From contig JBHLRO010000004.1 in assembly GCA_048882505.1 (NCBI GenBank), positions 50,193 through 82,192 of the forward strand: a stretch of DNA of 32,000 nucleotides, written 5' to 3'. Origin of the DNA: Candidatus Thorarchaeota archaeon (GTDB lineage: Archaea; Asgardarchaeota; Heimdallarchaeia; Hodarchaeales; Hodarchaeaceae). The position numbers were made by a program, and so were the translations under genes. Every line of letters starts with the position of its first letter. Position 1 is the stretch's first letter. The notes under the pieces are model-generated. The model made no database searches. It saw only the letters and a program-made list of their open reading frames with translations, and was not told where the DNA came from. Below, piece after piece: positions 1 through 22,984 of the stretch.

Positions 1-445
1 TAAAGAAATCTTTCAACGTTTTTATTACTTCATCCTGCATCTGAGGAAGCAGAAGGTCTGCCTTATGGAAAAAACAAAAAGCAATCGCATCATGGGAAAA
101 TTCACTCAATCTATTAATTGCATGGTCAAAATAGAACTTTGAAGTAGAAACCTGATCAAAATTACTTACATCTACGACCCAAACCAAAATTTGAACATCG
201 GAGAATATGAATTCCGCCTGTTCACCAACAAAAACGGAAATAAAGCTCTCCTGGCCCCCACAATCAAAAATCTGAAAGGCAGAATCGACAACGCTTTTCG
301 TTGAACGGGTATAATTGATCGTAGCATGATAATCCATCACTTCATCCGGAGTCTTTCCCTCAAAAACAACTGATCGTATACTACTCTTACCCGATGCGCC
401 TAATCCCATGAATAAAACTTTTTGTGGTAGAGGGGCAGTTTTCAA
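1..445 (-). CDS. Rag/Gtr1-family small GTPase (3' end runs off the window; missing from the ORF track)
   Basis: Manual translation from a TTG at 445 (RBS GTGGAG upstream) gives MKTAPLPQKVLFMGLGASGKSSIRSVVFEGKTPDEVMDYHATINYTRSTKSVVDSAFQIFDCGGQESFISVFVGEQAEFIFSDVQILVWVVDVSNFDQVSTSKFYFDHAINRLSEFSHDAIAFCFFHKADLLLPQMQDEVIKTLKDFF. It has G1 GLGASGKS, G2 AT, G3 DCGGQ and G4 HKAD. The frame is open to the window edge. Confidence 0.9.
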   Translation of the reverse strand, partial: MKTAPLPQKVLFMGLGASGKSSIRSVVFEGKTPDEVMDYHATINYTRSTKSVVDSAFQIFDCGGQESFISVFVGEQAEFIFSDVQILVWVVDVSNFDQVSTSKFYFDHAINRLSEFSHDAIAFCFFHKADLLLPQMQDEVIKTLKDFF

Positions 446-670
446 TGGTGATCTCCACTTTCTTGACTGATCCAACAAAAACCAAATTATGTCTGGTTTA
501 TAACGCTATCTCAATAAGATTATAGAACGTTTTATATTTCACCTAACCCTGTGTTATAAGAATTTCAGAGCATTTATATTGCCGAATAATGTGGGTGTGT
601 CACAGTATAAAAGGTTCTCAAAAGGCCACTCTCCTTGCTCAGAAGGATAACGTCTCAGGATCAATAGATT

Positions 671-2890
671 ATGTCAGACTGGGTGTCTCATGCTGATATC
701 AGTGCTCGATTAGGATATAAGATCTTGTTAGCTGGACTAAGTGAGGCTGGCAAGACCGCAGTCAAACGAATATTCTTTTTAAAACAATCTACGGCAGATG
801 TGGATAGTTTAGGTGCCACTATCAACTATGAACGCATGACAATGAACATTAAAAATACTCCCGTGACGATCGTAGATCTGGGCGGCCAAAAAATCTTTCT
901 CAAACGATTTCTGAACAATTTCAGCCCATTTGTTTTCAGTTCTGTAAGATCGTTTATTTTCCTTATCGATGTGGCGAATAAGACCTCACGGAACAGTGCG
1001 ATCCAATATTTTTGCGGTTGCTTGGAACGATTAGAGGAATTTTCACCCAAAGCGAACGTATTTGTTTTTCTCCATAAAAATGACCTGGTTCGGAATCTTC
1101 CCAATTATGAAAGTATACATTCTCAGCTGAAAGAACAATTCCAGCTGGAATACAAAACCGGTAATTTGCCCTTCTTTCGTACAACAATCTATAAACCTGA
1201 GACTGTAATCCGGAGTTTTGGGCGTATTTTTGAGCTCTCGTCGCCAGAACTGGCTGAAAGCGAGTTCGTTGATCATGAAAGGATTGGAACAATCGAAGAA
1301 TATGTGAAAGAGAGCATGGTTATTAGGAAAGAAGTTGAAACAGTTGAACGAGCTCAATTGGGAGGAACCCCTCAGGATGAGCTTCCATTAACCCCCTTTG
1401 ATGCCACAGTAATCAGACAATCATCTCCCTCGCCTCTGGCCGGGCATAAGACGGTAGGTAAATCAGAAGTATTATCTAAGCTTCAAAATCTGATGAGAGA
1501 TGCAACCAAGGTTGAGAAACCAAAGGAAGCAGATGACCTAGTTCTAGATAAACTACAGCATCTAATGAAAAAGGCGGTGAAACCAGAGGGTATTGATCAA
1601 GTCCAAGCTACGGGGAAAGTGCAAGAAACTATGGTAGATCATCGCGAACCTTTAATTGAAGATGTACCTTCTCCTAGTTCATCAGTTTCAGAGGTCGTCG
1701 GGAGCGATTTTCAGGTTGAAGAGGAGCCGGGCGAAATCACTTTTATCGATGACGATAAAGAAAATCAGATATCTCATCTAATCAGTTTTTATGACGTTGA
1801 GAAAGATCAAGCAGTGAGAATTGTTGAGCTTGGGTACGCGGATTTGTTTGAATCTGTTGCAGCAACCTCTGCCGTAGATATACCGCTGATAATCGATGTG
1901 CTCTTAAAATATCTGCCCTTAATCTCTCATCAAGTTGATGTGAGCAATTTAAATAAGGATCGTCTCTTTCTAATCTTTTTTGCGATTATGAAGGGCGATC
2001 TCCAACGGGAAATCCTCGCGGAATGCTTGATATTGGCCGCTAGCAAACCTGACCTTAGTATAGACGAAGTAATTGCAGAAATCAAGAAGGAAAAGACTAC
2101 GGAAGTGGTAGATTTTGAAATCCCCAAAAAAGAATATGAGACCAGCCTCCTCAAGGTTCCTCTCGCGATTACCAATACAGAAGGCGTACTGTCCGTTCCA
2201 GAGCTTCCTAAACTTGGTTTCAAGTGTGTAAGAGATAATTCAAATTTTGAACTTGAATTTCAACGTCTTGGTGAACCTGATTTAGATAAAAGGATTATTG
2301 GGCACACTACGGTTGCTCCCGACATCAAACCTGGAGAGTTGACCTATCTCCTCGCTTATGAATCTAATTTGTTTTCAATGGGGTTTTTTGATGGTTTGGA
2401 CACTTCTATTGACATATTTGCGCGCCTTATCTATAAGACCATTGAAAGAATGAAAACTTCAAACATCTCTTCGTCTGAAAGCATAGAACCTGACATGGAG
2501 ATCACTGTACCAATCCGAATTGAGATGGACGGAGACTTTATTCTTATTCCAGAAGGCCGCGGGGAGGTATTTAGCGTCCAAAAGACTAGATCGGGCTTTG
2601 ATGTCCTTTTCAAGAAAGATGAGCAGCCTTTAGGAAAAATTCAAGTAAGTACCGATCTAGATTTATCTTTAATACACACAAATCTCAAAGAAAGAATTGA
2701 ACTGCCATTAAGGTTGGAAAAGGATTGGGATTTGGCATCTCGAATCATTTATGGGGCAATAAACGTCCTTAAACAAGCTAGTGAAGCATTAGTTGATAAG
2801 GATCAAAAAATGAAACCTGAAGAGCTAGTAGAAGAAGTAGATGAAAGTTCAGAAAAGCTTAAGGAGTTTCTCAGATTATTACAGGAGTAA
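671..2890 (+). CDS. Rag/Gtr-like GTPase with ~550-aa C-terminal extension (acidic linker, helical domain, tandem-duplicated domain)
   Basis: N-terminal G1 GLSEAGKT, G2 LGATINYE, G3 DLGGQ, G4 HKND and G5 RTTIY. The HKxD and LGATI motifs are characteristic of Rag/Gtr1 proteins. No recognisable family in the remainder. Confidence 0.85.
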   Translation: MSDWVSHADISARLGYKILLAGLSEAGKTAVKRIFFLKQSTADVDSLGATINYERMTMNIKNTPVTIVDLGGQKIFLKRFLNNFSPFVFSSVRSFIFLIDVANKTSRNSAIQYFCGCLERLEEFSPKANVFVFLHKNDLVRNLPNYESIHSQLKEQFQLEYKTGNLPFFRTTIYKPETVIRSFGRIFELSSPELAESEFVDHERIGTIEEYVKESMVIRKEVETVERAQLGGTPQDELPLTPFDATVIRQSSPSPLAGHKTVGKSEVLSKLQNLMRDATKVEKPKEADDLVLDKLQHLMKKAVKPEGIDQVQATGKVQETMVDHREPLIEDVPSPSSSVSEVVGSDFQVEEEPGEITFIDDDKENQISHLISFYDVEKDQAVRIVELGYADLFESVAATSAVDIPLIIDVLLKYLPLISHQVDVSNLNKDRLFLIFFAIMKGDLQREILAECLILAASKPDLSIDEVIAEIKKEKTTEVVDFEIPKKEYETSLLKVPLAITNTEGVLSVPELPKLGFKCVRDNSNFELEFQRLGEPDLDKRIIGHTTVAPDIKPGELTYLLAYESNLFSMGFFDGLDTSIDIFARLIYKTIERMKTSNISSSESIEPDMEITVPIRIEMDGDFILIPEGRGEVFSVQKTRSGFDVLFKKDEQPLGKIQVSTDLDLSLIHTNLKERIELPLRLEKDWDLASRIIYGAINVLKQASEALVDKDQKMKPEELVEEVDESSEKLKEFLRLLQE
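2150..2773 (+). repeat. Internal tandem duplication of a ~95-100 aa domain in the 739-aa GTPase
   Basis: Copy 1 (~2150-2457) VPLAI..EG.LSVPE..F..FELEF..IG...V.PD..DIFARLIYKTIERMK aligns by eye to copy 2 (~2500-2773) VPIRI..DG.ILIPE..F..FDVLF..LG...V.TD..DLASRIIYGAINVLK. Similarity is at the protein level only. Confidence 0.7.
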
Positions 2891-2966
2891 TTGAGGGCCT
2901 TATTCCTTCTAGAGGATGGATTCCGAGTAAAAGTGATTTTGATACTGAATCGTTCACAGATTCGGC

Positions 2967-5900
2967 CTAAGAAGTATCGCCTCCAAGAAGTTCGATAGTT
3001 CCGTAAAGGTTTTGATAGGAAAGTGTAATAGATGTTACCAATTCCCGAACTTCAACGATTTTTCTCGCTATTAGTTCCTTGTTTTGGTTCTCGTCGTTCA
3101 TGAGAAGATGTGCTTCGTGCACTTTTTCCTGAATTTCATCCTTAAATTGGTTTAATAGCGGGAAAACTTCCTGATGGATGAGAATATTCAATGTGATATT
3201 CTCCTGCCCCCCTCTGGCCTCAGGACGACTCAAAAAATAGCCAAAAGATAAGATACTAATTCTTATTCCCCGAACCAGCACAAAATCAAAACTAGAATAA
3301 ATTTCAGCATCAAGCGTGTCAGCGAATCCCGTGACAGAGAATGAGCGGTCAGACAGCTCTACCAATTTAGAGAAATTGTCTTTGAGGATTTCGGGTATCA
3401 CAATGATTGGAATTGGTCCGTGCGCTTGATCGAAATAGGAAACAACAACTCCAACCGAATGGCTGTCCAAACTGTTCCTAACAACTGTATCGGAAAAGTT
3501 ACTGGTATTCTGCATTACTAGGCCTTTATCTAGACCAACTAACTCTGGTTTACGGAAAAATCTCACATAAACAATTGCACCCACGAAGATCAAGATGACG
3601 GCAATGCCAGCTACAAGAAATAGTTCGGTGGGGAGACTTGGAGGAACATAGGGAATACGTTGCTCCGCTAAGTTCAGATTGGTGAATGCTAAAGTATTGA
3701 AATTCCCGTCATTGTCGCGGGTTGAGATTTGGAAAATTACATCCAGTGATGAAGTGTATTCATTCAGTAAAACGGTAATGATATAGCGATCATACGCTCC
3801 ACTTTTTCCCACAAATTCCATAGTTATGCTTGCAGTTTGCTGGAAGGTAGATGCCCCTCCTCCACCATTCTGGATTGGTTTGAAGTCGTACGCCAGAATC
3901 ACTTCAGCAATACCCGATCCTTCTTCAACTATATCAGCATAGAAGGTAATATTGGATGGATTCTGAACATCAGGAGTTGTATACCACGCATCAACCACCC
4001 GTGGGGGGGACTCATCCTTGATCACTAAGTTGAAGGACTCTGACTTACTAATCTCATATGATAAAATATGAACTACCTCTGTTACCACGGTAATATTAAC
4101 TGTTGCCACCATATTTAAGTAGGTAAGGTTTTGTAGTTGAAAATCTAGCTCCCATAAATTTAGACTTCCGGAAGTTATGATACGTCTCTCTTCGAGAGAA
4201 CCAATGTAAATTAAGACCTCTACCTGCTTGATATTGTTGCGTGAATCCGTAATATTGAACACAAAGCTATAGTGTCCCTCTGTATCATTTTTAGGTATAA
4301 ATTGAGCATCATTAACAACTGGCCTACTTTCTACGAAGACAGAAACAGAAACAATCTTCCCATAGTCGCTGCCATCATAAGGGTGTATTTCCGCTCTCCA
4401 GGTTTCGCTATGTTTGGTTCTGTTAGCAGGAATTATCATCAGGCCATTGAACTGAGTTTCCAGGACACCATCAACATACCACTGAACAGAGGATGCATCA
4501 AGGTCATTATCAATGTCAGAATAAGCATAAGTCAGAATAATCTCTTCGTCTTCCACGATTATCCCAGGAACGGATGGATTTCCCATTTCAAAAGTAGGAT
4601 TTATTACTTGAGGAGCGGTGTTTTGGATCGTGACGGTCAAACTGGTTGCTAATGGCCCAAATAGTTGCCCATCTTTGGGGCGTATTGTCGCATACCATTG
4701 ATCATTCTTAATTAATGCAGATGCCGGTATGGTATATGAATCATTAAATGTGGGTTGCAGGTTGAGGTTCTTATACCATCTAATCTCTGTTCCTCCTTCA
4801 CTGTCCTCAGGTGAATCGGAGAAATCGTAGGATAACGTCAAGCTTTCATTACTATGTATTGGGTTTGGGGTCAGAGTGATATTTTCAACTGAGGGCGGAG
4901 CGTTGAATCCTCTGTATGAAACAAATTCAGTCGAAGTAAAAACATTGTTGCTTGTATCGTTCACAATGATCCTAAACTTAACCAAACCATTTGGCATCAG
5001 GATGGTATCATTGATGAACCCACTAGAGGTATTTCTCATCACGGCGAGAACTCCTGTCTGGGCAGAACCACCAAAATAAGTTACATTGAGGAGAACCTTG
5101 TCAATAACACCCCAAACGTCCATTACAGTTGTATTAAAGGTACCATTTACACCTATCGTATGATCATATGTTCCAACGAGAACCGTTGGGGGGTTAGTAT
5201 CTTTTAAAAACGTGTGAGTCTTCACTGTTGGATCTGTGACATTGTTTCCAAAAATATCGGAGGTGTTAACAATCTGATAGGTATAAAAACCACCGTATTC
5301 TATTGGTACGGAACTATTCGTCCAGTACGTTCCATTAAAACTCATAGAATATGCTGAACTATTTACCAAAAGAGTCGCATTCTCAATCGCTGATCCAAAA
5401 TCTACAATATCGGCCCAGAAATTAGCCTGCCCTGTTCCTGACTCATCCACTCCAAAATTTACGAGTTGGGGAGGGGTAAAATCGCCATAAAGCGTTAACG
5501 CATGTATATAAACATTAGAATCCGTATTTTCCGCATTGACTTCGATTTCATGGTTCGGATTCATCCCACTTCCTCCCATGAGCCACGTACCACCGCCCAC
5601 ATCATATTGAGGAAATTGCCAGGATTGACCTTCTTTTCTGGCAATACCACGACGATCCCCTCCGACAGATTCAAATTGTAGGATTGCTCCCGTAGCATTG
5701 GATGGTACGGCAACATAAGAATCGAGGTCCCGGGTTGTCCATCCGTTTGATGTACCGGAAATATCATCCCGATTGGTGTCTAACCAATCGATACTGTCAC
5801 CGACCTCTGCAATTAAATAAAAATGAGCTGTGTTATCAAGGAAATATTCAAATTGATCGTTATTATCGATTTTAACAAAAAATACTCCTGAATTGAAGGG

Positions 5901-7631
5901 TTCCCAGTATCTAAAGCTTCCATCGGTTGATCCAGTCGCCCTCACCGTAATTCTGGAAACGGAAAGGCTATCGAGCTGTGCGAACAGAATAACCCCGGTC
6001 GTGTTTTCATCCACTCCAGGTACCGTCAAGGTATTCCAATTTGAATTCGCGGTTAATAACCCTAAATCTAACGATTCAGGCCTAAACCTCGGATCCGCTC
6101 CCACCGTATATCCCATCACATAGAGTCTTTGTCTGTTATGTTCCCTCCAAGTGTCAATATATTTGTGGGTACCTAGTTTTACGACTTGCATCCTCCAGGT
6201 ATCGGCCTCTAGTTGGTTTTGAATTAACCCGCCTTGCATGTAATCGTGCGCCTTGTCTTCGGATCCACGAGCGACTGCGTGTCGATTGCTGCCGCTATCG
6301 TCTACCCAGCCCAAAATAACTCCCGTAGCATAGCTGGGTACACTATCATCCGATAAATCTTGATTATTCACCCAAGAATCGACGGTTGAACCTAAATTTA
6401 CTTCGTCAGGAGAATCTAACCAAACGAAACCATTATCATTACCCATAATGGGGTTTTGATCTTGTATTCGAAGTAACACTGCATCTATCTCCCACCAATC
6501 TTGAATACTATCACCAGAGGTGTTGGATCCCCCAAATTTAATCGTGAATGTTGAACTGCTAAGATTAACTGTAAAATTGTTCCATGAATTGGGATTTAAA
6601 TCGGCAGCAATGGATGACCAAGCAGAACCAGTCCAATACGATATGTTGATGTCTTCGGAGCCACCAAACGAACCCGTTCTGATAGCTAGCTCTTCTAGAT
6701 CTAAGAAGGAGACCACATCAGTGAATTGAACCTCTAAATCTAAATTTAAACCACCCAATTCCTCTTTTTTAATGTTGACATAATCTATGTAAGCATTTTC
6801 GTTTTGAAAGCCGTTTGCGCGCCATCGGATTTGGAAATCTGGGATATAGTAGGAAGCATCAGTAATCTTCTGTGAATAAAAAACCCATTGGAACTCGGAA
6901 TGTGGCAATAGGTTCATATCCTGATATGTATTCCAAGCAGTTCCGTCCCATAATTCCAAATAGAGCTCACCATCATCAAACCATTCATCTCTCCACCAAA
7001 ACTCGATATAAATAGCATTTGAGCCCGAGGTATTCATTGCAGGCGACACTAAAACTCCAAACTGAATGGTATCCGTGGCATCAAAATCTGCAGAGTAAAC
7101 TCCATGATATGCTTGGTCGGCTTCTTTATTCCAGCGTCCTGTCCCGCTCCAACCTGTGGGGATCCAAGCTCCTTCAAAAGATTCGAGACCAATTAGTGTT
7201 GTGTTAAAATCGTAACCTTCCGTCATATTATTGTAACTAGAGTCATTGTCCTGGAGATTAGAAAAAATGTTATGGTATCCACGATCTGAGGAAGCATCCA
7301 CATCGCTTCTCTGATCAACATAATGTTCAATTACGGGAGCAATTTCTTTTGAAAGACTCCTCCGAATTCCTAAAGTTTTTGTTTTTTCTGAGGTAATAGC
7401 TGAGGTTTCGGTTGGTGAGGAAGTTCCCGCAATCCTTGATTTAGCGGCAATCCCATTTCCGGTAAATGATAAACTTTTATCTCCTTTTAAAGAATCTAGC
7501 GTAACTGATTGTAATCCTAGGTGCCGTTCATCATGAATGTACTGAATCATTGGCAATAGCTGGATGAAAAAGATGGCGAGACATAATCCTGCGGAAATTC
7601 TCTTACTTAGATTCATGTGATTGATCACCAT
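2967..7631 (-). CDS. Large single-pass surface glycoprotein (jelly-roll and Ig-like ectodomain) with cytoplasmic folliculin/SMCR8-like uDENN (longin) domain
   Basis: N-terminal hydrophobic signal and many N-x-S/T sequons. Beta-rich repeats begin DFTPP, DTNPP, NAPP, NTAP and DESPP. A TM helix LFLVAGIAVILIFVGAIVYV (~aa 1337-1356) is followed by RFFRK. The tail carries YFDQAHGPIP...IP and LSRPEARGGQE motifs. RBS GAGAGG upstream. Confidence 0.8.
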   Translation of the reverse strand: MVINHMNLSKRISAGLCLAIFFIQLLPMIQYIHDERHLGLQSVTLDSLKGDKSLSFTGNGIAAKSRIAGTSSPTETSAITSEKTKTLGIRRSLSKEIAPVIEHYVDQRSDVDASSDRGYHNIFSNLQDNDSSYNNMTEGYDFNTTLIGLESFEGAWIPTGWSGTGRWNKEADQAYHGVYSADFDATDTIQFGVLVSPAMNTSGSNAIYIEFWWRDEWFDDGELYLELWDGTAWNTYQDMNLLPHSEFQWVFYSQKITDASYYIPDFQIRWRANGFQNENAYIDYVNIKKEELGGLNLDLEVQFTDVVSFLDLEELAIRTGSFGGSEDINISYWTGSAWSSIAADLNPNSWNNFTVNLSSSTFTIKFGGSNTSGDSIQDWWEIDAVLLRIQDQNPIMGNDNGFVWLDSPDEVNLGSTVDSWVNNQDLSDDSVPSYATGVILGWVDDSGSNRHAVARGSEDKAHDYMQGGLIQNQLEADTWRMQVVKLGTHKYIDTWREHNRQRLYVMGYTVGADPRFRPESLDLGLLTANSNWNTLTVPGVDENTTGVILFAQLDSLSVSRITVRATGSTDGSFRYWEPFNSGVFFVKIDNNDQFEYFLDNTAHFYLIAEVGDSIDWLDTNRDDISGTSNGWTTRDLDSYVAVPSNATGAILQFESVGGDRRGIARKEGQSWQFPQYDVGGGTWLMGGSGMNPNHEIEVNAENTDSNVYIHALTLYGDFTPPQLVNFGVDESGTGQANFWADIVDFGSAIENATLLVNSSAYSMSFNGTYWTNSSVPIEYGGFYTYQIVNTSDIFGNNVTDPTVKTHTFLKDTNPPTVLVGTYDHTIGVNGTFNTTVMDVWGVIDKVLLNVTYFGGSAQTGVLAVMRNTSSGFINDTILMPNGLVKFRIIVNDTSNNVFTSTEFVSYRGFNAPPSVENITLTPNPIHSNESLTLSYDFSDSPEDSEGGTEIRWYKNLNLQPTFNDSYTIPASALIKNDQWYATIRPKDGQLFGPLATSLTVTIQNTAPQVINPTFEMGNPSVPGIIVEDEEIILTYAYSDIDNDLDASSVQWYVDGVLETQFNGLMIIPANRTKHSETWRAEIHPYDGSDYGKIVSVSVFVESRPVVNDAQFIPKNDTEGHYSFVFNITDSRNNIKQVEVLIYIGSLEERRIITSGSLNLWELDFQLQNLTYLNMVATVNITVVTEVVHILSYEISKSESFNLVIKDESPPRVVDAWYTTPDVQNPSNITFYADIVEEGSGIAEVILAYDFKPIQNGGGGASTFQQTASITMEFVGKSGAYDRYIITVLLNEYTSSLDVIFQISTRDNDGNFNTLAFTNLNLAEQRIPYVPPSLPTELFLVAGIAVILIFVGAIVYVRFFRKPELVGLDKGLVMQNTSNFSDTVVRNSLDSHSVGVVVSYFDQAHGPIPIIVIPEILKDNFSKLVELSDRSFSVTGFADTLDAEIYSSFDFVLVRGIRISILSFGYFLSRPEARGGQENITLNILIHQEVFPLLNQFKDEIQEKVHEAHLLMNDENQNKELIARKIVEVRELVTSITLSYQNLYGTIELLGGDTS

Positions 7632-8034
7632 GGACCTCTCTGAGTAGGATTGAGATTATCTTGCGGACAAATGAGGATTCTCAGTGATGAGTTTTTTCAC
7701 TTTATTTAGAGTTAACTGAATAAACTCTTCCATATTACCTTTTGAGAAGGATGGAAATCGCAATCTTGATTCAGGGGTCTCACTCGATCTTTAATAAAAT
7801 TCAAATTATGAAAAACGTAAAACCACGGGAACCTAATACAGCAGATTGATTTACACCATCAGAACTTCAGAGAAGAAGATAACAGGAGAAATGTCAGAAT
7901 ATCCAGAGAGGATTCTTCCCCTAGTCATCTCCCATTGATAAACGGATATGTGAAGAATCCTCAGTCCAAACCATCTATGGTAGTGGTAAAAAATGGCGTA
8001 TTTCTTACCTGAGAAACCGAACCTTAAACAGAGG

Positions 8035-10161
8035 TCATTTTCTCTTCTTCTTATTTCGGGATGTAATATATAGGCACCAAAGCCCTACGAGGAGTAAAAT
8101 CCATTCAACGAAGGAAGTAGGCCCGCCAATACCACTTGTAAAATCTGCTGTGTAATATGGATCTGTGTCTATAACCGCAGATCCACTTAAGACAATATGA
8201 AATTCACCTGTTCTCAAAGTTGCCCAGATAACAACGTAATAGGTATGGTTTTCAATTATTAAAAGACTTTCAGCAACCGAAAAGCGGCCGGTATACTCCC
8301 ATTCATCATCATAGACCTCGCCATAAACTACAAGTGGAGCACCAGGCTCCATTTGGATAGTCAGATAGGTTCCATTTGTTAGATCCCATTGCACGCCGCG
8401 AACACGGATTTTTTCTGTCATTTGCCCCGTAAAAACCTCTTCTGTCATATTATCCAAAGTTACCCAAACATACGAGAAGGAAAAATTCCCCACAGTGGCG
8501 GGAATGGATAGGTTAAGCTCATAAAGCCCCTTATCCAGAGAAAAGGAATAAATTCTGCGCCAATTCGTGCTAGAAACGTTCTGTACAACGCTGAGATCAG
8601 GAATAACCGAACTCATATCATCCTTGAGCCAAATATCCAACACTAAAGGTTTAATCTGATCCGAACCACCTAGGAAGAGATAGTAGAGCCCATTTGCCTC
8701 TGAATTAAAACGGGATAAAACTACGTCGTTTTTTTCTGCCCAGATTGTTATTTCTTCACCGATATTGTGCTTTGGGGGTTCAACAATAAGCCATTGAGTT
8801 GGCGTTGAACCAACATTCTTAAGAATATCAGAAGACGTAATCCAATAGCTTAGATTTTTTCCTTCTGCTACATTATCAATTTGGGCCACCCAGTACGAGG
8901 TGTCTGAGATGGGTTTCATATATATCGTATTCCAAGGTCCAGTAGCATCATGATAAAGCGTAACAAAACTGATTGCTGAAAAATCAGAAACCTCTGCCAG
9001 TAGTTCGACAGAATACATACCTTGTCCCGCAGGAGTGATCTTTGGGGATATGATCACGGATGGGAACGTTAGATCCAACCAAAACTCTACAAGTTTAGTA
9101 TTGGTGGAAGTTGTACCTCCACCGTCCTCCCAAGTAACGATGATATTCATTTGCTTATGAAATTCACGACCCAATTCAATTGTCCATTCCTCGATCAGTG
9201 TTGGTAAATCGATTCCTTCTGCTTCCATTTCAGGAAGGTACACCGATGTTCCGCCCGCATATTCCGCCACCCATTTGAATTGATCCTCAATATTACTATC
9301 TGCAATATCTGAAATCACCGTATTGATGATAACTCCTTTGTCCTTTAAACTCGAGAGCACGCTTAATAGTTGGCTTCCATTATAATAATTGCTATCTGTA
9401 TAATCTGTCCCCACAACTTTCCCTGGGTCACAATCCTCGTCACCAACCATAATTATCAGTTTTTGAGCCGTTTCTCTCCAGTCCCATGTGTTTCCAAGAT
9501 GGAGAGCGTCTCCCCAGGGTTCTGTACCGCCACCGGCATAAAGGGAGTTAATGAACGTTTTTACCGCATCAAAGTCCGCCGTAAACTGTAACTGATTCCC
9601 TGGGTGATCCATCGGATAGTTTGAGTACTTTTCCCACCCGTAGATTATAATCCCTATCCGTAAGTTTGGAATCTCTTGCGAAATATTATTGATCAGATCA
9701 GTAATCTTTTGTTTGACCGATGCAATTTCATTTCCCATACTTCCACTGGCATCCATTATAAGTAGAAGGTCAACCGCAGAAGTAGTGTCATTGCTCTTTA
9801 GGCTCGCTACTAAAGATACAATATCAGAGGTATCGGGTTCAATCTCAGGGATTGTTGGGATTGGTGTTGGGGTGATTTCAATATTCGTGAAAGTATGTTC
9901 CACATCCATATTGACATTATAAACTGAATTGGGTAAGGTATTTTTTAACGTAACCCGGAATTCTAGCGTTGAAAATTGACCAAGACCAGTAGCGTTCTTA
10001 GCTATCGAGATTGTGACGTTGCTGCTGTCATTTTGACCTGTTACAGCGAAATTCCCCTTAAATTGTACATTCGTGGTCCTAAGATTCGATATCAGCAGAA
10101 AAAATAGAATTAACCAAGTCGTCATTATCAGATAAGAATATCTCTTTCTTCTCACGACCAT
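8035..10161 (-). CDS. Secreted, membrane-anchored von Willebrand factor A (MIDAS) domain protein
   Basis: Signal helix, then DLLLIMDASGSM (DxSxS), GGGTEP and IMVGDE completing the MIDAS motif. Ig-like/beta domains follow, and the protein ends in a TM helix plus the basic tail RNKKKRK. Confidence 0.85.
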   Translation of the reverse strand: MVVRRKRYSYLIMTTWLILFFLLISNLRTTNVQFKGNFAVTGQNDSSNVTISIAKNATGLGQFSTLEFRVTLKNTLPNSVYNVNMDVEHTFTNIEITPTPIPTIPEIEPDTSDIVSLVASLKSNDTTSAVDLLLIMDASGSMGNEIASVKQKITDLINNISQEIPNLRIGIIIYGWEKYSNYPMDHPGNQLQFTADFDAVKTFINSLYAGGGTEPWGDALHLGNTWDWRETAQKLIIMVGDEDCDPGKVVGTDYTDSNYYNGSQLLSVLSSLKDKGVIINTVISDIADSNIEDQFKWVAEYAGGTSVYLPEMEAEGIDLPTLIEEWTIELGREFHKQMNIIVTWEDGGGTTSTNTKLVEFWLDLTFPSVIISPKITPAGQGMYSVELLAEVSDFSAISFVTLYHDATGPWNTIYMKPISDTSYWVAQIDNVAEGKNLSYWITSSDILKNVGSTPTQWLIVEPPKHNIGEEITIWAEKNDVVLSRFNSEANGLYYLFLGGSDQIKPLVLDIWLKDDMSSVIPDLSVVQNVSSTNWRRIYSFSLDKGLYELNLSIPATVGNFSFSYVWVTLDNMTEEVFTGQMTEKIRVRGVQWDLTNGTYLTIQMEPGAPLVVYGEVYDDEWEYTGRFSVAESLLIIENHTYYVVIWATLRTGEFHIVLSGSAVIDTDPYYTADFTSGIGGPTSFVEWILLLVGLWCLYITSRNKKKRK

Positions 10162-20322: not shown

Positions 20323-20545
20323 TTGGCTATGAACATATGAAGATGGAAATCGCTACAGTTTACCCACCCATGTCATCGATACAGTTTTGAAGTTTTTATT
20401 CTAACTTCCCAAAATGTAGATCTTGCCAAAAAAGGTGTATGAAGAAGGAAACTACGCTAAATATCCAACTGATAATCTCATCTCAGTAAATTTTTCCGCG
20501 CAATTATGTCCTTTGAACCGTTTGATGTGTGGAGTAATCAGAACA

Positions 20546-22984
20546 ATGTCAAAAAAAGATAGATTTATCCTTTGGTATCACGAAATTGAAAATAAAGATC
20601 TTCCACTTGTTGGGGGGAAAAATGCTTCCCTAGGAGAAATGTATAGTCAACTTAATCGATTTGGAATACGGATCCCCAATGGATTTGCGATCACTGCAGC
20701 CGCTTATCGGCATTTTGTTCAAACTACTGGCATCGAGGAGAAAATTCACGCGACCATTCAGGGGCTTGATGCTCATAACCTTAATGATCTCCAGATCCGT
20801 GGGAGACGAGTTCGCGAAATCATCAGATATGCTCAATTCCCACCTGATCTAGAACAGGAGATTCGAGAAGCTTACCGCTCTTTATGCATGGAACATCAGA
20901 AAGTTGACATTGACGTAGCTGTCCGATCAAGTGCCACTGCGGAAGATTTGCCTGATGCAAGCTTCGCTGGCCAGCAAGACACATATTTGAATGTTCAGGG
21001 CGAAGATTCGCTACTAGCAGCTTGTAAGGCCTGCTTTGCCAGCCTTTTCACTGATCGTGCAATAAGTTACCGTGAGGATCGTGGATTTGACCATTTGGAT
21101 GTCTATCTTTCTATCGGAATACAGATCATGGTACGATCGGACGTCGGATCATCTGGCGTAACTTTCACCCTCGATACAGAGTCGGGCTTTCGAGATGTCG
21201 TTTTTATTACGGGTTCATACGGGTTAGGCGAACCCGTCGTACAAGGAACAGTTAACCCTGATGAATTCTATGTATTTAAACCAACTCTTAAGGAAGGTAA
21301 GAAACCAATCATCGGGAAAAAGCTGGGTACAAAAGAACAAATGATGATTTATTCTCCTAATCCACAACGGCCAACGAAACTAGTCGATACAACAGAATCA
21401 ATGAGGAACAGCTATTGCTTAAGCGACGACGAGATATTACAGCTGGCTAAGTGGGCAATGGTAATCGAGGATCATTATGGAAAACCAATGGATATCGAAT
21501 GGGCAAAAGACGGAGACGGCTTGTTTTCGGGATCCGGTGACCTTTTCATTGTTCAAGCGCGTCCTGAAACAATACACTCCCAAAAAAAAGGGAATGTCTT
21601 AGAGACCTATGTGCTAGAAGAGAATGGGGAAGTGTTAGTAACAGGACAAGCCGTGGGGTCAAGGATTGGTCAAGGGAAGGTAAATGTCATCGAATCATCC
21701 TCGCGAATCTCAGAATTCAAATCTGGAGAAGTCCTGGTCACGTCTATGACCGATCCAGATTGGGAACCGATCATGAAAATAGCTGCGGCAATTGTTACGG
21801 ATCGTGGAGGGAGGACGTGCCATGCAGCCATCGTTTCTCGTGAATTGGGAATTCCCGCTGTCATCGGTACAGAGTTAGGATCACGAATTTTGCAGGACGG
21901 TCAGCAGATAACTGTTAGTTGTGCTGAAGGTCAAGAAGGCCGTATTTACAAAGGTTCTTTGCCGTTTCGCATTGATACTGTTCAATTAGACGTGATTCCT
22001 AAGACCAGAACTAAAATAATGATGAACGTTGGGATACCTGACAAAGCTTTTGTACAGGCCCAAATTCCAAATGATGGTGTTGGCCTCGCGCGAGAGGAAT
22101 TCATCATAAATTCGTACATCGGAATTCATCCATTGGCACTTGTCCACTATGACAAACTTAAAGAAAAGCCAGAGTCGAATCCAGAAATTCATGACGTTTT
22201 GCAAAAAATCGATGACCGCACAATATCCTATAAGGATAAGACTGAGTTTTTCACTGATCAGTTATCGATGGGAATCGGGAGGATAGCCGCTGCTTTTTGG
22301 CCAAATGATGTGGTGGTTAGGCTTTCAGATTTTAAATCAAACGAATATGCCAACCTGATTGGGGGATCAATCTATGAACCCACGGAATCCAATCCTATGA
22401 TTGGCTGGCGTGGGGCCTCCCGTTATTACGACGGTACATACAAACCCGCATTTTTCTTGGAGTGTGAAGCTTTGAAACGAGTACGGGACGTGATGGGGCT
22501 TACTAATGTCATTGTAATGGTGCCATTTTGTCGTACCGTAGAGGAAGGTAAGAAAGTAGTTGAAGTGATGGCGGAGGCTGGTTTGAAACAGGGGGAAAAT
22601 GGCCTCCAAATTTACGTTATGGCCGAGATACCTTCAAATGTTATTCAAGCAGATGGATTTGCAGAGGTATTTGACGGTTTTTCAATTGGATCAAACGATT
22701 TAACTCAGTTAGCTCTGGGATTGGATCGGGATTCGGAGCTAATTTCACATATCTATGACGAACGTAACGAAGCAGTAAAACGATTGGTAAAGGCGGTTAT
22801 TGAAACCGCGAAAAAATACAAGCGAAAGATTGGGATATGTGGACAAGCACCTTCAGATTTTCCGGAGTTCGCAGAGTTTCTGGTAGAATGTGGTATTGAC
22901 TCCATGAGCCTGAATCCAGATACTGTTGTTAAAACACGAATTGAAGTGGCTAGAAAAGAGAAGAGTCTGGGAATCTCGCCTTAA
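20546..22984 (+). CDS. ppsA: Phosphoenolpyruvate synthase
   Basis: VGGKNASLGE, VRSSATAED, SFAGQQDT, QARPET, GGRTCHAAI (phospho-His), NPMIGWRG, SIGSNDL, ICGQAP. The likely start is the ATG at 20546 (MSKKDR, GGAG upstream). Confidence 0.98.
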   Translation: MSKKDRFILWYHEIENKDLPLVGGKNASLGEMYSQLNRFGIRIPNGFAITAAAYRHFVQTTGIEEKIHATIQGLDAHNLNDLQIRGRRVREIIRYAQFPPDLEQEIREAYRSLCMEHQKVDIDVAVRSSATAEDLPDASFAGQQDTYLNVQGEDSLLAACKACFASLFTDRAISYREDRGFDHLDVYLSIGIQIMVRSDVGSSGVTFTLDTESGFRDVVFITGSYGLGEPVVQGTVNPDEFYVFKPTLKEGKKPIIGKKLGTKEQMMIYSPNPQRPTKLVDTTESMRNSYCLSDDEILQLAKWAMVIEDHYGKPMDIEWAKDGDGLFSGSGDLFIVQARPETIHSQKKGNVLETYVLEENGEVLVTGQAVGSRIGQGKVNVIESSSRISEFKSGEVLVTSMTDPDWEPIMKIAAAIVTDRGGRTCHAAIVSRELGIPAVIGTELGSRILQDGQQITVSCAEGQEGRIYKGSLPFRIDTVQLDVIPKTRTKIMMNVGIPDKAFVQAQIPNDGVGLAREEFIINSYIGIHPLALVHYDKLKEKPESNPEIHDVLQKIDDRTISYKDKTEFFTDQLSMGIGRIAAAFWPNDVVVRLSDFKSNEYANLIGGSIYEPTESNPMIGWRGASRYYDGTYKPAFFLECEALKRVRDVMGLTNVIVMVPFCRTVEEGKKVVEVMAEAGLKQGENGLQIYVMAEIPSNVIQADGFAEVFDGFSIGSNDLTQLALGLDRDSELISHIYDERNEAVKRLVKAVIETAKKYKRKIGICGQAPSDFPEFAEFLVECGIDSMSLNPDTVVKTRIEVARKEKSLGISP

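Follow-up and report, generated by a model that had tools for sequence, protein, structure and literature searches.

Rag/Gtr GTPases are acted on by GTPase-activating proteins (GAPs) that contain longin domains: FLCN-FNIP (Lst7-Lst4) acts on RagC/D (Gtr2), and the NPRL2-NPRL3 pair of GATOR1/SEACIT acts on RagA/B (Gtr1). The known longin GAPs all use two paired longin domains (PMC8213707; PMC12290439). The catalytic longins FLCN, NPRL2, SMCR8 and C9orf72 are marked by a GP motif before strand 2 and a neighbouring arginine finger, a pair of features that is missing from the longins of FNIP2, NPRL3, TRAPP, adaptin and DENND and that occurs in soluble FLCN-type longins of Heimdallarchaeia (PMC12290439). 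Rag/Gtr GTPases, as well as longin and roadblock proteins, are well documented in Asgard archaea (PMC10933270; 10.1101/2024.02.28.582541). FLCN-like and NPRL2-like longins have been described there by Liu et al., whose one reported FLCN-like operon combines LAMTOR1-like and DENN proteins with a Rab-like GTPase, not a Rag (10.1101/2020.10.19.343400). Asgard genomes encode many Rags and many longin proteins, and the pairing of a regulator with its GTPase is hard to assign. In MK-D1, the GTPase genes generally lie outside operons with roadblock or longin genes, and Tran et al. (2024) found the genome layout unhelpful there (PMC10933270); a 2025 paper in Traffic asks whether the Asgard FLCN-type longins serve Arf-related or Rag GTPases (PMC12290439). 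Here, we analysed a 32,000-nucleotide stretch of Hodarchaeales DNA, hereafter referred to as the window. The conserved core of its first locus consists of three genes, which encode a single-pass surface protein with a predicted longin tail (the receptor) and two Rag/Gtr GTPases (Rag1 and Rag2-ext). Such an arrangement suggests direct control of Rag switches by a receptor in the membrane.

The receptor tail shares several features with the FLCN and NPRL2 GAPs, namely the predicted longin fold (they are among its closest structural scores), a GP motif before β2, a conserved arginine in the loop beside it, and genetic association with Rag/Gtr GTPases. Moreover, a class of paralogs without GP and arginine recalls the non-catalytic partners FNIP and NPRL3. 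However, the tail has neither the DENN nor the NPRL2-specific C-terminal domain and no sequence-level similarity to these proteins. FLCN and NPRL2 are soluble and are recruited to lysosomes, whereas the tail is fused to a giant single-pass surface protein and has no downstream TOR pathway. TOR is reported to be absent from Asgard archaea. The soluble Asgard FLCN/SMCR8 longins (PMC12290439; A0A842RCD3 and A0A523THY3 in the AlphaFold Database, AFDB) belong to the same class, have GP and arginine, and are enriched in Heimdallarchaeia, but they are short cytosolic proteins with an N-terminal longin, while the domain described here is a C-terminal receptor tail with conserved Rag neighbours. Ragulator/EGO, which holds Rag/Gtr heterodimers at the lysosome or vacuole, is similar in being a membrane-attached module of longin/roadblock fold that is placed by Rags; it differs in that its roadblock dimers, held on lipidated LAMTOR1, contact the roadblock domains of the Rags, and in having neither the Arg/GP signature nor an ectodomain. 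The Roadblock-Longin protein of Lokiarchaeota (Protein Data Bank, PDB, 8yqg) crystallised as a longin dimer and, unlike the membrane-fused tail, is a soluble protein of another Asgard class. Our literature search found no paper on 8yqg or on the Rag-like entries 8yl2, 8zla and 9m28, which show that others are active in closely related work. Within the incomplete coverage of the same search, no report of the receptor-longin fusion or of its conserved Rag linkage was found. The conserved neighbourhood of a GP/Arg-longin and Rags gives a concrete pair for testing, recombinant tail and Rags, in the lineage closest to eukaryotes.

Gene organization and receptor topology

The window (G000:C4:50193-82192) belongs to a 4.3-Mb, 83-contig metagenome-assembled genome of Hodarchaeales (Heimdallarchaeia, Asgard). 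An initial annotation of this DNA had described two Rag GTPases, a receptor and a von Willebrand factor A (vWA) surface protein in the first 10.2 kb, and all four open reading frames (ORFs) are found there. The features of the three-gene core, in window coordinates and with amino acid (aa) positions where they apply, are as follows.

2-478, minus strand: Rag1, N-terminal 159 codons (Pfam PF04670, E 2.7e-30)
479-670: intergenic region of the divergent, head-to-head Rag1/Rag2 gene pair (ORF map)
671-2890, plus strand: Rag2-ext, 739 aa (Pfam PF04670, E 7.3e-30)
2891-2966: 76 bp separating the stops of the convergent Rag2-ext and receptor genes (ORF coordinates)
2967-7631, minus strand: receptor, 1554 aa, single-pass surface protein (hydropathy, predicted fold)
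2970-3554, minus strand: receptor cytoplasmic tail, aa 1360-1554, predicted longin of the FLCN/NPRL2/SMCR8 class (AlphaFold2 model, structure searches)
3213-3215, minus strand: R1473, candidate arginine finger, within ARGG of the β4-β5 loop (invariance in the family)
3414-3419, minus strand: G1405-P1406, the GP motif where longin β2 begins, within FDQxxGPxP (family conservation)
3555-3623, minus strand: single transmembrane (TM) helix, aa 1337-1359, followed by a basic RFFRK stop-transfer sequence (hydropathy 2.92 over 19 residues)
3624-7535, minus strand: receptor ectodomain, aa 33-1336 (sequence analysis)
7536-7631, minus strand: signal or anchor segment at the receptor N-terminus, hydrophobic at aa 11-32 (hydropathy)

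The receptor can thus be described as an N-terminal hydrophobic segment, a large ectodomain, one TM helix and a tail of 195 aa. The publicly called protein begins 5 codons downstream of the ORF start in the window. The ectodomain (~1300 aa) has no cysteines and contains 31 N-x-S/T sequons, where 17 are expected. Pfam gave no significant family in either half of it, and a look-up in the ESM Atlas gave no usable lead. It shares blocks of 30-50% identity with giant paralogs in the same genome, and the ectodomains of relatives carry LamG, DUF2341 or InlB repeats. Ectodomains of this kind of receptor reach lengths of up to ~10,000 aa.

Such ectodomains bear on the direction in which the system might work. 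The tail could be a cargo or address label that is read by the Rags, which would then steer the delivery, positioning, clustering or turnover of an adhesin, the surface protein being the output. Ectodomains that are huge, variable and adhesin-like (LamG, DUF2341, InlB repeats) speak for this inside-out scheme, as does the combination of many receptors and one tail type with few GTPases, and it is general knowledge that longin domains also function in SNARE and signal recognition particle (SRP) receptor targeting. A pure sorting tag, however, would need no invariant arginine and GP signature of catalytic type, and trafficking machinery was not found in the conserved neighbourhood. We regard inside-out control as quite unlikely.

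Fold of the receptor tail

The AlphaFold2 model of the tail, made from an alignment of 80 sequences, has a predicted local distance difference test score (pLDDT) of 92.6 and a predicted template modelling score (pTM) of 0.89. Its predicted topology, β-β-α-β-β-β-α-α, is that of a longin. The nearest structures were obtained with Foldseek, with VIA re-alignment and with VIA run exhaustively against 48,161 chains, all of which agree. The best structural match is the Lokiarchaeota Roadblock-Longin 8yqg, with a Z-score of 13.3 and a root mean square deviation (RMSD) of 3.0 over 141 residues at 15% identity. It is followed by FLCN (Z 11.3-12.4, the highest to 8dhb_J; RMSD 2.6-2.7 over 135 residues), Lst4 (Z 10.6-11.3), C9orf72 and SMCR8 (Z 9.4-11, with C9orf72 at 10.7), NPRL2/Npr2 (Z 9-10.5) and FNIP2 (Z 9.1). 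DENND1 scores 8.6-8.7, and SNARE, adaptin, TRAPP and roadblock proteins score 8 or less. Among the AFDB clusters, the top matches are archaeal proteins named 'Folliculin/SMCR8 longin domain-containing protein', including A0A842RCD3 and A0A523THY3. Structure prediction and structural comparison therefore support the assignment of the tail to the FLCN/NPRL2/SMCR8 class of longin domains.

The tail had previously been labelled a uDENN domain. The structure searches bear out the fold class that this label implies, a longin of the FLCN/SMCR8/NPRL2 type, but not a full DENN module: there is neither a DENN core nor a dDENN after the longin of the tail, and the protein ends ~10 residues past the two C-terminal longin helices.

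GP motif and arginine of the tail

Of the two features that mark catalytic longins, the tail has the GP motif and a candidate for the arginine finger. Among 80 family members, G46 of the tail (G1405 of the receptor) is invariant and P47 (P1406) is found in at least 90%; in the tail model, the strand that spans residues 46-53 opens with this motif. R114 (R1473), in the ARGG motif, is invariant across the same 80 members. It is located in the β4-β5 loop, a neighbour of the GP loop in the longin topology. Both FDQxxGPxP and ARGG are retained in class-level relatives whose tails have only ~30% identity. In a divergent class of paralogs, found in 9 genomes, the GP motif and the arginine are lost together, as is expected if both form one functional site.

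These data also bear on whether the tail could serve the Rags solely as a membrane anchor, or as a platform for a guanine nucleotide exchange factor (GEF), in the manner of Ragulator/EGO, TRAPP, Mon1-Ccz1 or DENN proteins, without stimulating hydrolysis. The majority of longin and roadblock platforms act as GEFs or scaffolds, the DENND1 uDENN and roadblock proteins are among the structural neighbours of the tail (Z 6-8.7), and the synteny evidence given below fits this role equally well. Moreover, Rags lack a lipid anchor and depend on a tether at the membrane (PMC10933270), and the fusion of the tail to a TM helix suggests how they reach the membrane. On the other hand, the top structural matches are longins of the GAP class, and the tail retains the GP and arginine pair that is reported in GAP longins and not in those of FNIP2, NPRL3, TRAPP, adaptin or DENND (PMC12290439). 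A tail that only anchors Rags or promotes exchange thus appears unlikely, although it is to be taken seriously.

Receptors with a second subtype of tail form a tandem trio (G000:C9:121065-126896, L007:9066-15032, and L054-L061), which is composed of a giant protein, one of ~1550 aa and one of ~1000 aa. The trio is found in at least 10 genomes of the genus, including that of the window (contig C9), and has no Rag gene nearby. The tail of its ~1000-aa member is without GP and arginine and looks like a pseudo-GAP longin, recalling FNIP/NPRL3.

The two Rag GTPases

Both GTPases had been named Rags in the initial annotation, and this identity stands: they match Pfam Gtr1_RagA with 105.9 and 104.5 bits for Rag1 and Rag2-ext, respectively (cut-off 22), while Arf reaches just 38-39 bits, and their best PDB matches, in sequence and in structure, are Gtr1/RagA. 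The Rag-like GTPases of Lokiarchaeota (8yl2, 8zla, 9m28) match both proteins. The complete Rag1 gene (G000:C4:49729-50670; 302-313 aa) extends past the left edge of the window. Rag1 consists of a G domain and a C-terminal roadblock domain, and its family profile aligns with residues 2-285 of yeast Gtr1, a span that takes in the roadblock domain (E 6e-39), and with RagA (E 1.5e-36), compared with 1e-13 to 1e-18 for RagC and Gtr2. The G motifs are intact in Rag1 (P-loop GLGASGKS, G3 DCGGQ, G4 HKAD) and in Rag2-ext (GLSEAGKT, DLGGQ, HKND), and the G1 (GxxxxGK[ST]), DxxGQ and Rag-type HKxD positions are invariant in the alignments A3 (Rag1 family) and A2.

In Rag2-ext, the Pfam match spans residues 17-187 and is followed by an extension of 550 aa. 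The top structural matches of its G domain (aa 1-190) are Gtr1 and RagA (E 5.6e-10). Beyond the G domain, the AlphaFold2 model shows a disordered linker at ~aa 215-360, a helical domain at aa 361-476 and, at the C-terminus (window 2138-2806), two tandem domains of ~100 aa, [490-597] and [608-712], each made of five strands followed by two helices. A canonical roadblock domain was not recognised in this model, and the tandem domains stand where one is expected. Neither Pfam nor the ESM Atlas gave a fold match for the extension, and with the whole model the Foldseek match list was filled by GTPases. The Rag2-ext family is common across Hodarchaeales. The divergent Rag1/Rag2 gene pair recurs in the genus (L019, L020, L021, L023, L024 and L025), and the retention of this pair suggests that Rag1 and Rag2-ext may form a heterodimer, as is obligate for Rag/Gtr paralogs. 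Distant Rag-extension genes were considered as orthologs of Rag2, but BLAST places both distant Rags closer to Rag1-type paralogs.

Another group of Rag genes is located 13-17 kb to the left of the window (L009:3016-6857; G000:C4:33208-37049). It is a co-directional four-gene cluster that encodes a Rag of 309 aa, a 266-aa protein, a degenerate Rag-like protein of 307 aa (Pfam E 5e-4) and a Rag of 337 aa. The 266-aa protein has no Pfam match and begins ...TDMGPFPLL, with a GP-like motif in the first strand; its comparison with the tail profile by hhalign was negative.

Linkage of receptor and Rag genes

The genome of the window contains seven strong Rag genes in four loci. Three of these four loci lie less than 500 bp from a gene for a tail-bearing receptor (P ~1.4e-4 under random placement), namely the window locus and loci on contigs C1 and C50. 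In the C1 locus, a Rag1-type gene comes 57 bp after the gene for a receptor of 3671 aa. In the C50 locus, a Rag2-type gene is convergent with the receptor, as in the window. Within the genus, the layout is convergent in G001, G013, G020 and G016; Rag-extension genes are upstream and co-directional in G012 and G007; and a Rag1-type gene lies directly upstream or downstream, at 25-71 bp, in G011, G018 and G016.

In other families of the class, whose genomes carry just 1-3 strong Rag genes each, Rag genes are directly adjacent at 21 of the 26 assessable receptor loci (8 of 8 in a first sample and 13 of 18 in a second). The commonest layout there comprises, in this order, a Ras/Roc-like GTPase of ~240 aa, a receptor of ~1450-1620 aa, a Rag with an extension of 490-690 aa and a convergent Rag of ~410 aa. 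In a second layout, the receptor is accompanied by a Rag G domain that stands alone (180-199 aa). Ectodomains and outer flanking genes vary among these loci, and no other recurrent neighbour theme was found among the receptor loci examined. Adjacency of the receptor-longin and Rag genes, which had been put forward from the window locus, thus holds over several families and in several gene orientations.

As to receptor paralogs scattered independently of Rag genes, which had been named as contrary evidence, this is found in part: seven of the ten tail-bearing genes in the window genome are away from any Rag gene, and their neighbours are unrelated (a major facilitator superfamily (MFS) transporter, peptidases, a thioredoxin-like protein and others); yet three of the four Rag loci abut a receptor. 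It could be argued that the adjacency is due to shared descent and segmental duplication alone, with no functional link. That most paralogs in the window genome are not beside Rag genes agrees with this view, related genomes are non-independent samples, and the two most similar loci of the window genome, those of the window and of contig C50, could be one duplicated segment. However, the adjacency spans families with ~30% tail identity, unrelated ectodomains and different flanks, it survives inversions and reorderings, and within the window genome chance adjacency has P ~1e-4. Because the adjacency is class-wide and tolerant of rearrangement, mere co-inheritance is very improbable. Taken together, structure prediction, conserved motifs and deep synteny give good support to the link between the receptor-longin and the Rags.

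Three further observations concern the loci of other families. The third GTPase of ~240 aa (weak Pfam Ras/Roc) is directly upstream of the receptor at L012:4595-5314, L015:3836-4567, L034:1859-2590 and equivalents. The ancestral-looking locus consists of three GTPases around one receptor, and the ~240-aa GTPase has no counterpart in the window. Beside the receptor-Rag locus of one complete genome from another family lies a TnpB/Cas12f-like gene (485 aa; L012:13346-14803).

Distribution of the tail family

A HMMER scan of 1.84 billion representatives yielded 141 related clusters only, in which the domain is at the extreme C-terminus of proteins of 200-5809 aa. The tail is at the C-terminal end in all 104 judged representatives, and in 93 of these a TM-like segment is located at most 60 residues upstream of it. 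Public annotations of the family read hypothetical, DUF2341, LamG-like or InlB-repeat, and the tail region itself is unannotated. Beyond the class, a sample of 250 genomes of the phylum gave weak matches only (E ~1e-13), save for one genome with 9% contamination. The ten tail-bearing genes of the window genome range from 823 to 10,062 codons and have very different ectodomains and near-identical tails; genomes of the other families of the class often have a single copy of the tail.

Soluble variants make up 11 of the 104 representatives (P0062, P0063, P0073, P0074, P0078-P0080, P0082, P0130, P0143 and P0145). They are proteins of 280-590 aa with a C-terminal longin and no TM segment upstream. 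Some tail frames are broken, with in-frame stops or as mere fragments (G007:C6:244769-245341, G011:C18:70582-71154, G010:C14:6499-7059, G017:C101:14866-15132 and G020:C41:26818-27036). The broken frames, two of which directly adjoin Rag genes, probably represent pseudogenes, or else errors of assembly.

Proposed mechanism

We propose that the membrane-tethered tail is a candidate GAP, which would dock on one Rag or both, at the G domain, and would stimulate GTP hydrolysis through the invariant R1473 beside the GP loop. In this way, the nucleotide state of the Rags would be determined locally, where the receptor sits in the membrane. Receptors that pair or cluster by way of their ectodomains would assemble a catalytic platform of two longins, and about ten receptors with differing ectodomains would feed a small pool of Rags. 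Receptor pairing is an attractive trigger because the known longin GAPs act as longin pairs and 8yqg is a longin dimer; the tandem trio with its pseudo-GAP-like third tail agrees with such pairing. We give this reading, with docking, dependence on R1473 and receptor pairing taken together, a probability of about one half. The analysis itself documents the gene content, the topology, the predicted fold, the conserved motifs and the conserved neighbourhood; Rag binding, GAP chemistry, dimer-dependent activation and the outside-in direction are what we infer from the conserved features of the tail and its neighbourhood. If they are true, archaea would have a receptor-to-small-GTPase pathway of eukaryotic style.

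Several points weigh against this proposal. With the tail, Pfam returned no family even at E values of up to 10, and a PDB profile search with the tail alignment gave nothing better than E 0.07, the matches being unrelated helical proteins. R1473 is likened to FLCN R164, NPRL2 R78 and SMCR8 R147 by loop topology and motif likeness rather than by residue-level superposition. Longin and roadblock domains serve as GEFs or scaffolds more often than as GAPs, and the giant ectodomains are also in keeping with adhesins that are positioned from inside the cell. To these are added the seven receptors of the window genome that are away from Rag genes and, among relatives of the second sample, the 5 loci out of 18 assessable ones at which no Rag is adjacent. 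A complex prediction of the tail with full-length Rag1 and the Rag2 G domain, in the presence of GTP, had a score of 0.21, below the mark of 0.32, was made without controls and gives no answer; it counts neither for nor against binding. A look-up of RNA data for the locus returned none, and this likewise carries no weight.

The initial annotation had seen in the locus a precursor of the eukaryotic switch, and had named surface contact or a ligand as its possible trigger. The precursor claim is plausible, as are the GAP mechanism and the outside-in direction. A broader scenario can be formulated, in which the locus represents a surviving archaeal form of the Rag/longin-GAP switch at the cell surface: ectodomain pairing would build a two-longin GAP that turns the Rags off, catalytic and pseudo-catalytic tails would prefigure FLCN-FNIP and NPRL2-NPRL3, and the lysosomal nutrient-sensing GAPs of eukaryotes would descend from receptor tails of the plasma membrane. 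As a whole, this scenario is speculative and unlikely.

Neighbouring genes

The fourth gene of the locus is separate from the core.

8035-10161, minus strand: vWA surface protein with a metal ion-dependent adhesion site (MIDAS), 708 aa (Pfam VWA 29.6 bits, DASGS motif)

The VWA match (PF00092) is above the cut-off of 23.8, the MIDAS sequence DxSxS is intact (DASGS, residues 137-141), and the protein bears hydrophobic segments at the N- and C-termini; Pfam gave nothing significant in its C-terminal half. This protein had been counted as part of the signalling module, a view that we reject: no homolog is present in 29 related loci, and within the genus the gene adjoins a tail-receptor gene only in the closest relative, G016. 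A role as co-receptor was likewise dropped for want of conservation. The vWA gene is a local neighbour outside the conserved module.

To the right of the locus, the window carries metabolic genes. Segment 11403-17905 encodes an acyl-CoA dehydrogenase, the beta and alpha subunits of the electron transfer flavoprotein (ETF) and an Fe-S/CCG-domain protein, likely an electron-bifurcating or beta-oxidation set. A pyruvate phosphate dikinase (PPDK)/phosphoenolpyruvate (PEP) synthase is located at 20423-22984, and enolase is likewise among these genes. Immediately left of Rag1 (L009:17385-19502; G000:C4:47577-49694), a gene encodes a WD40 protein of 705 aa whose propeller has seven blades (Pfam WD40, E 1.6e-77).

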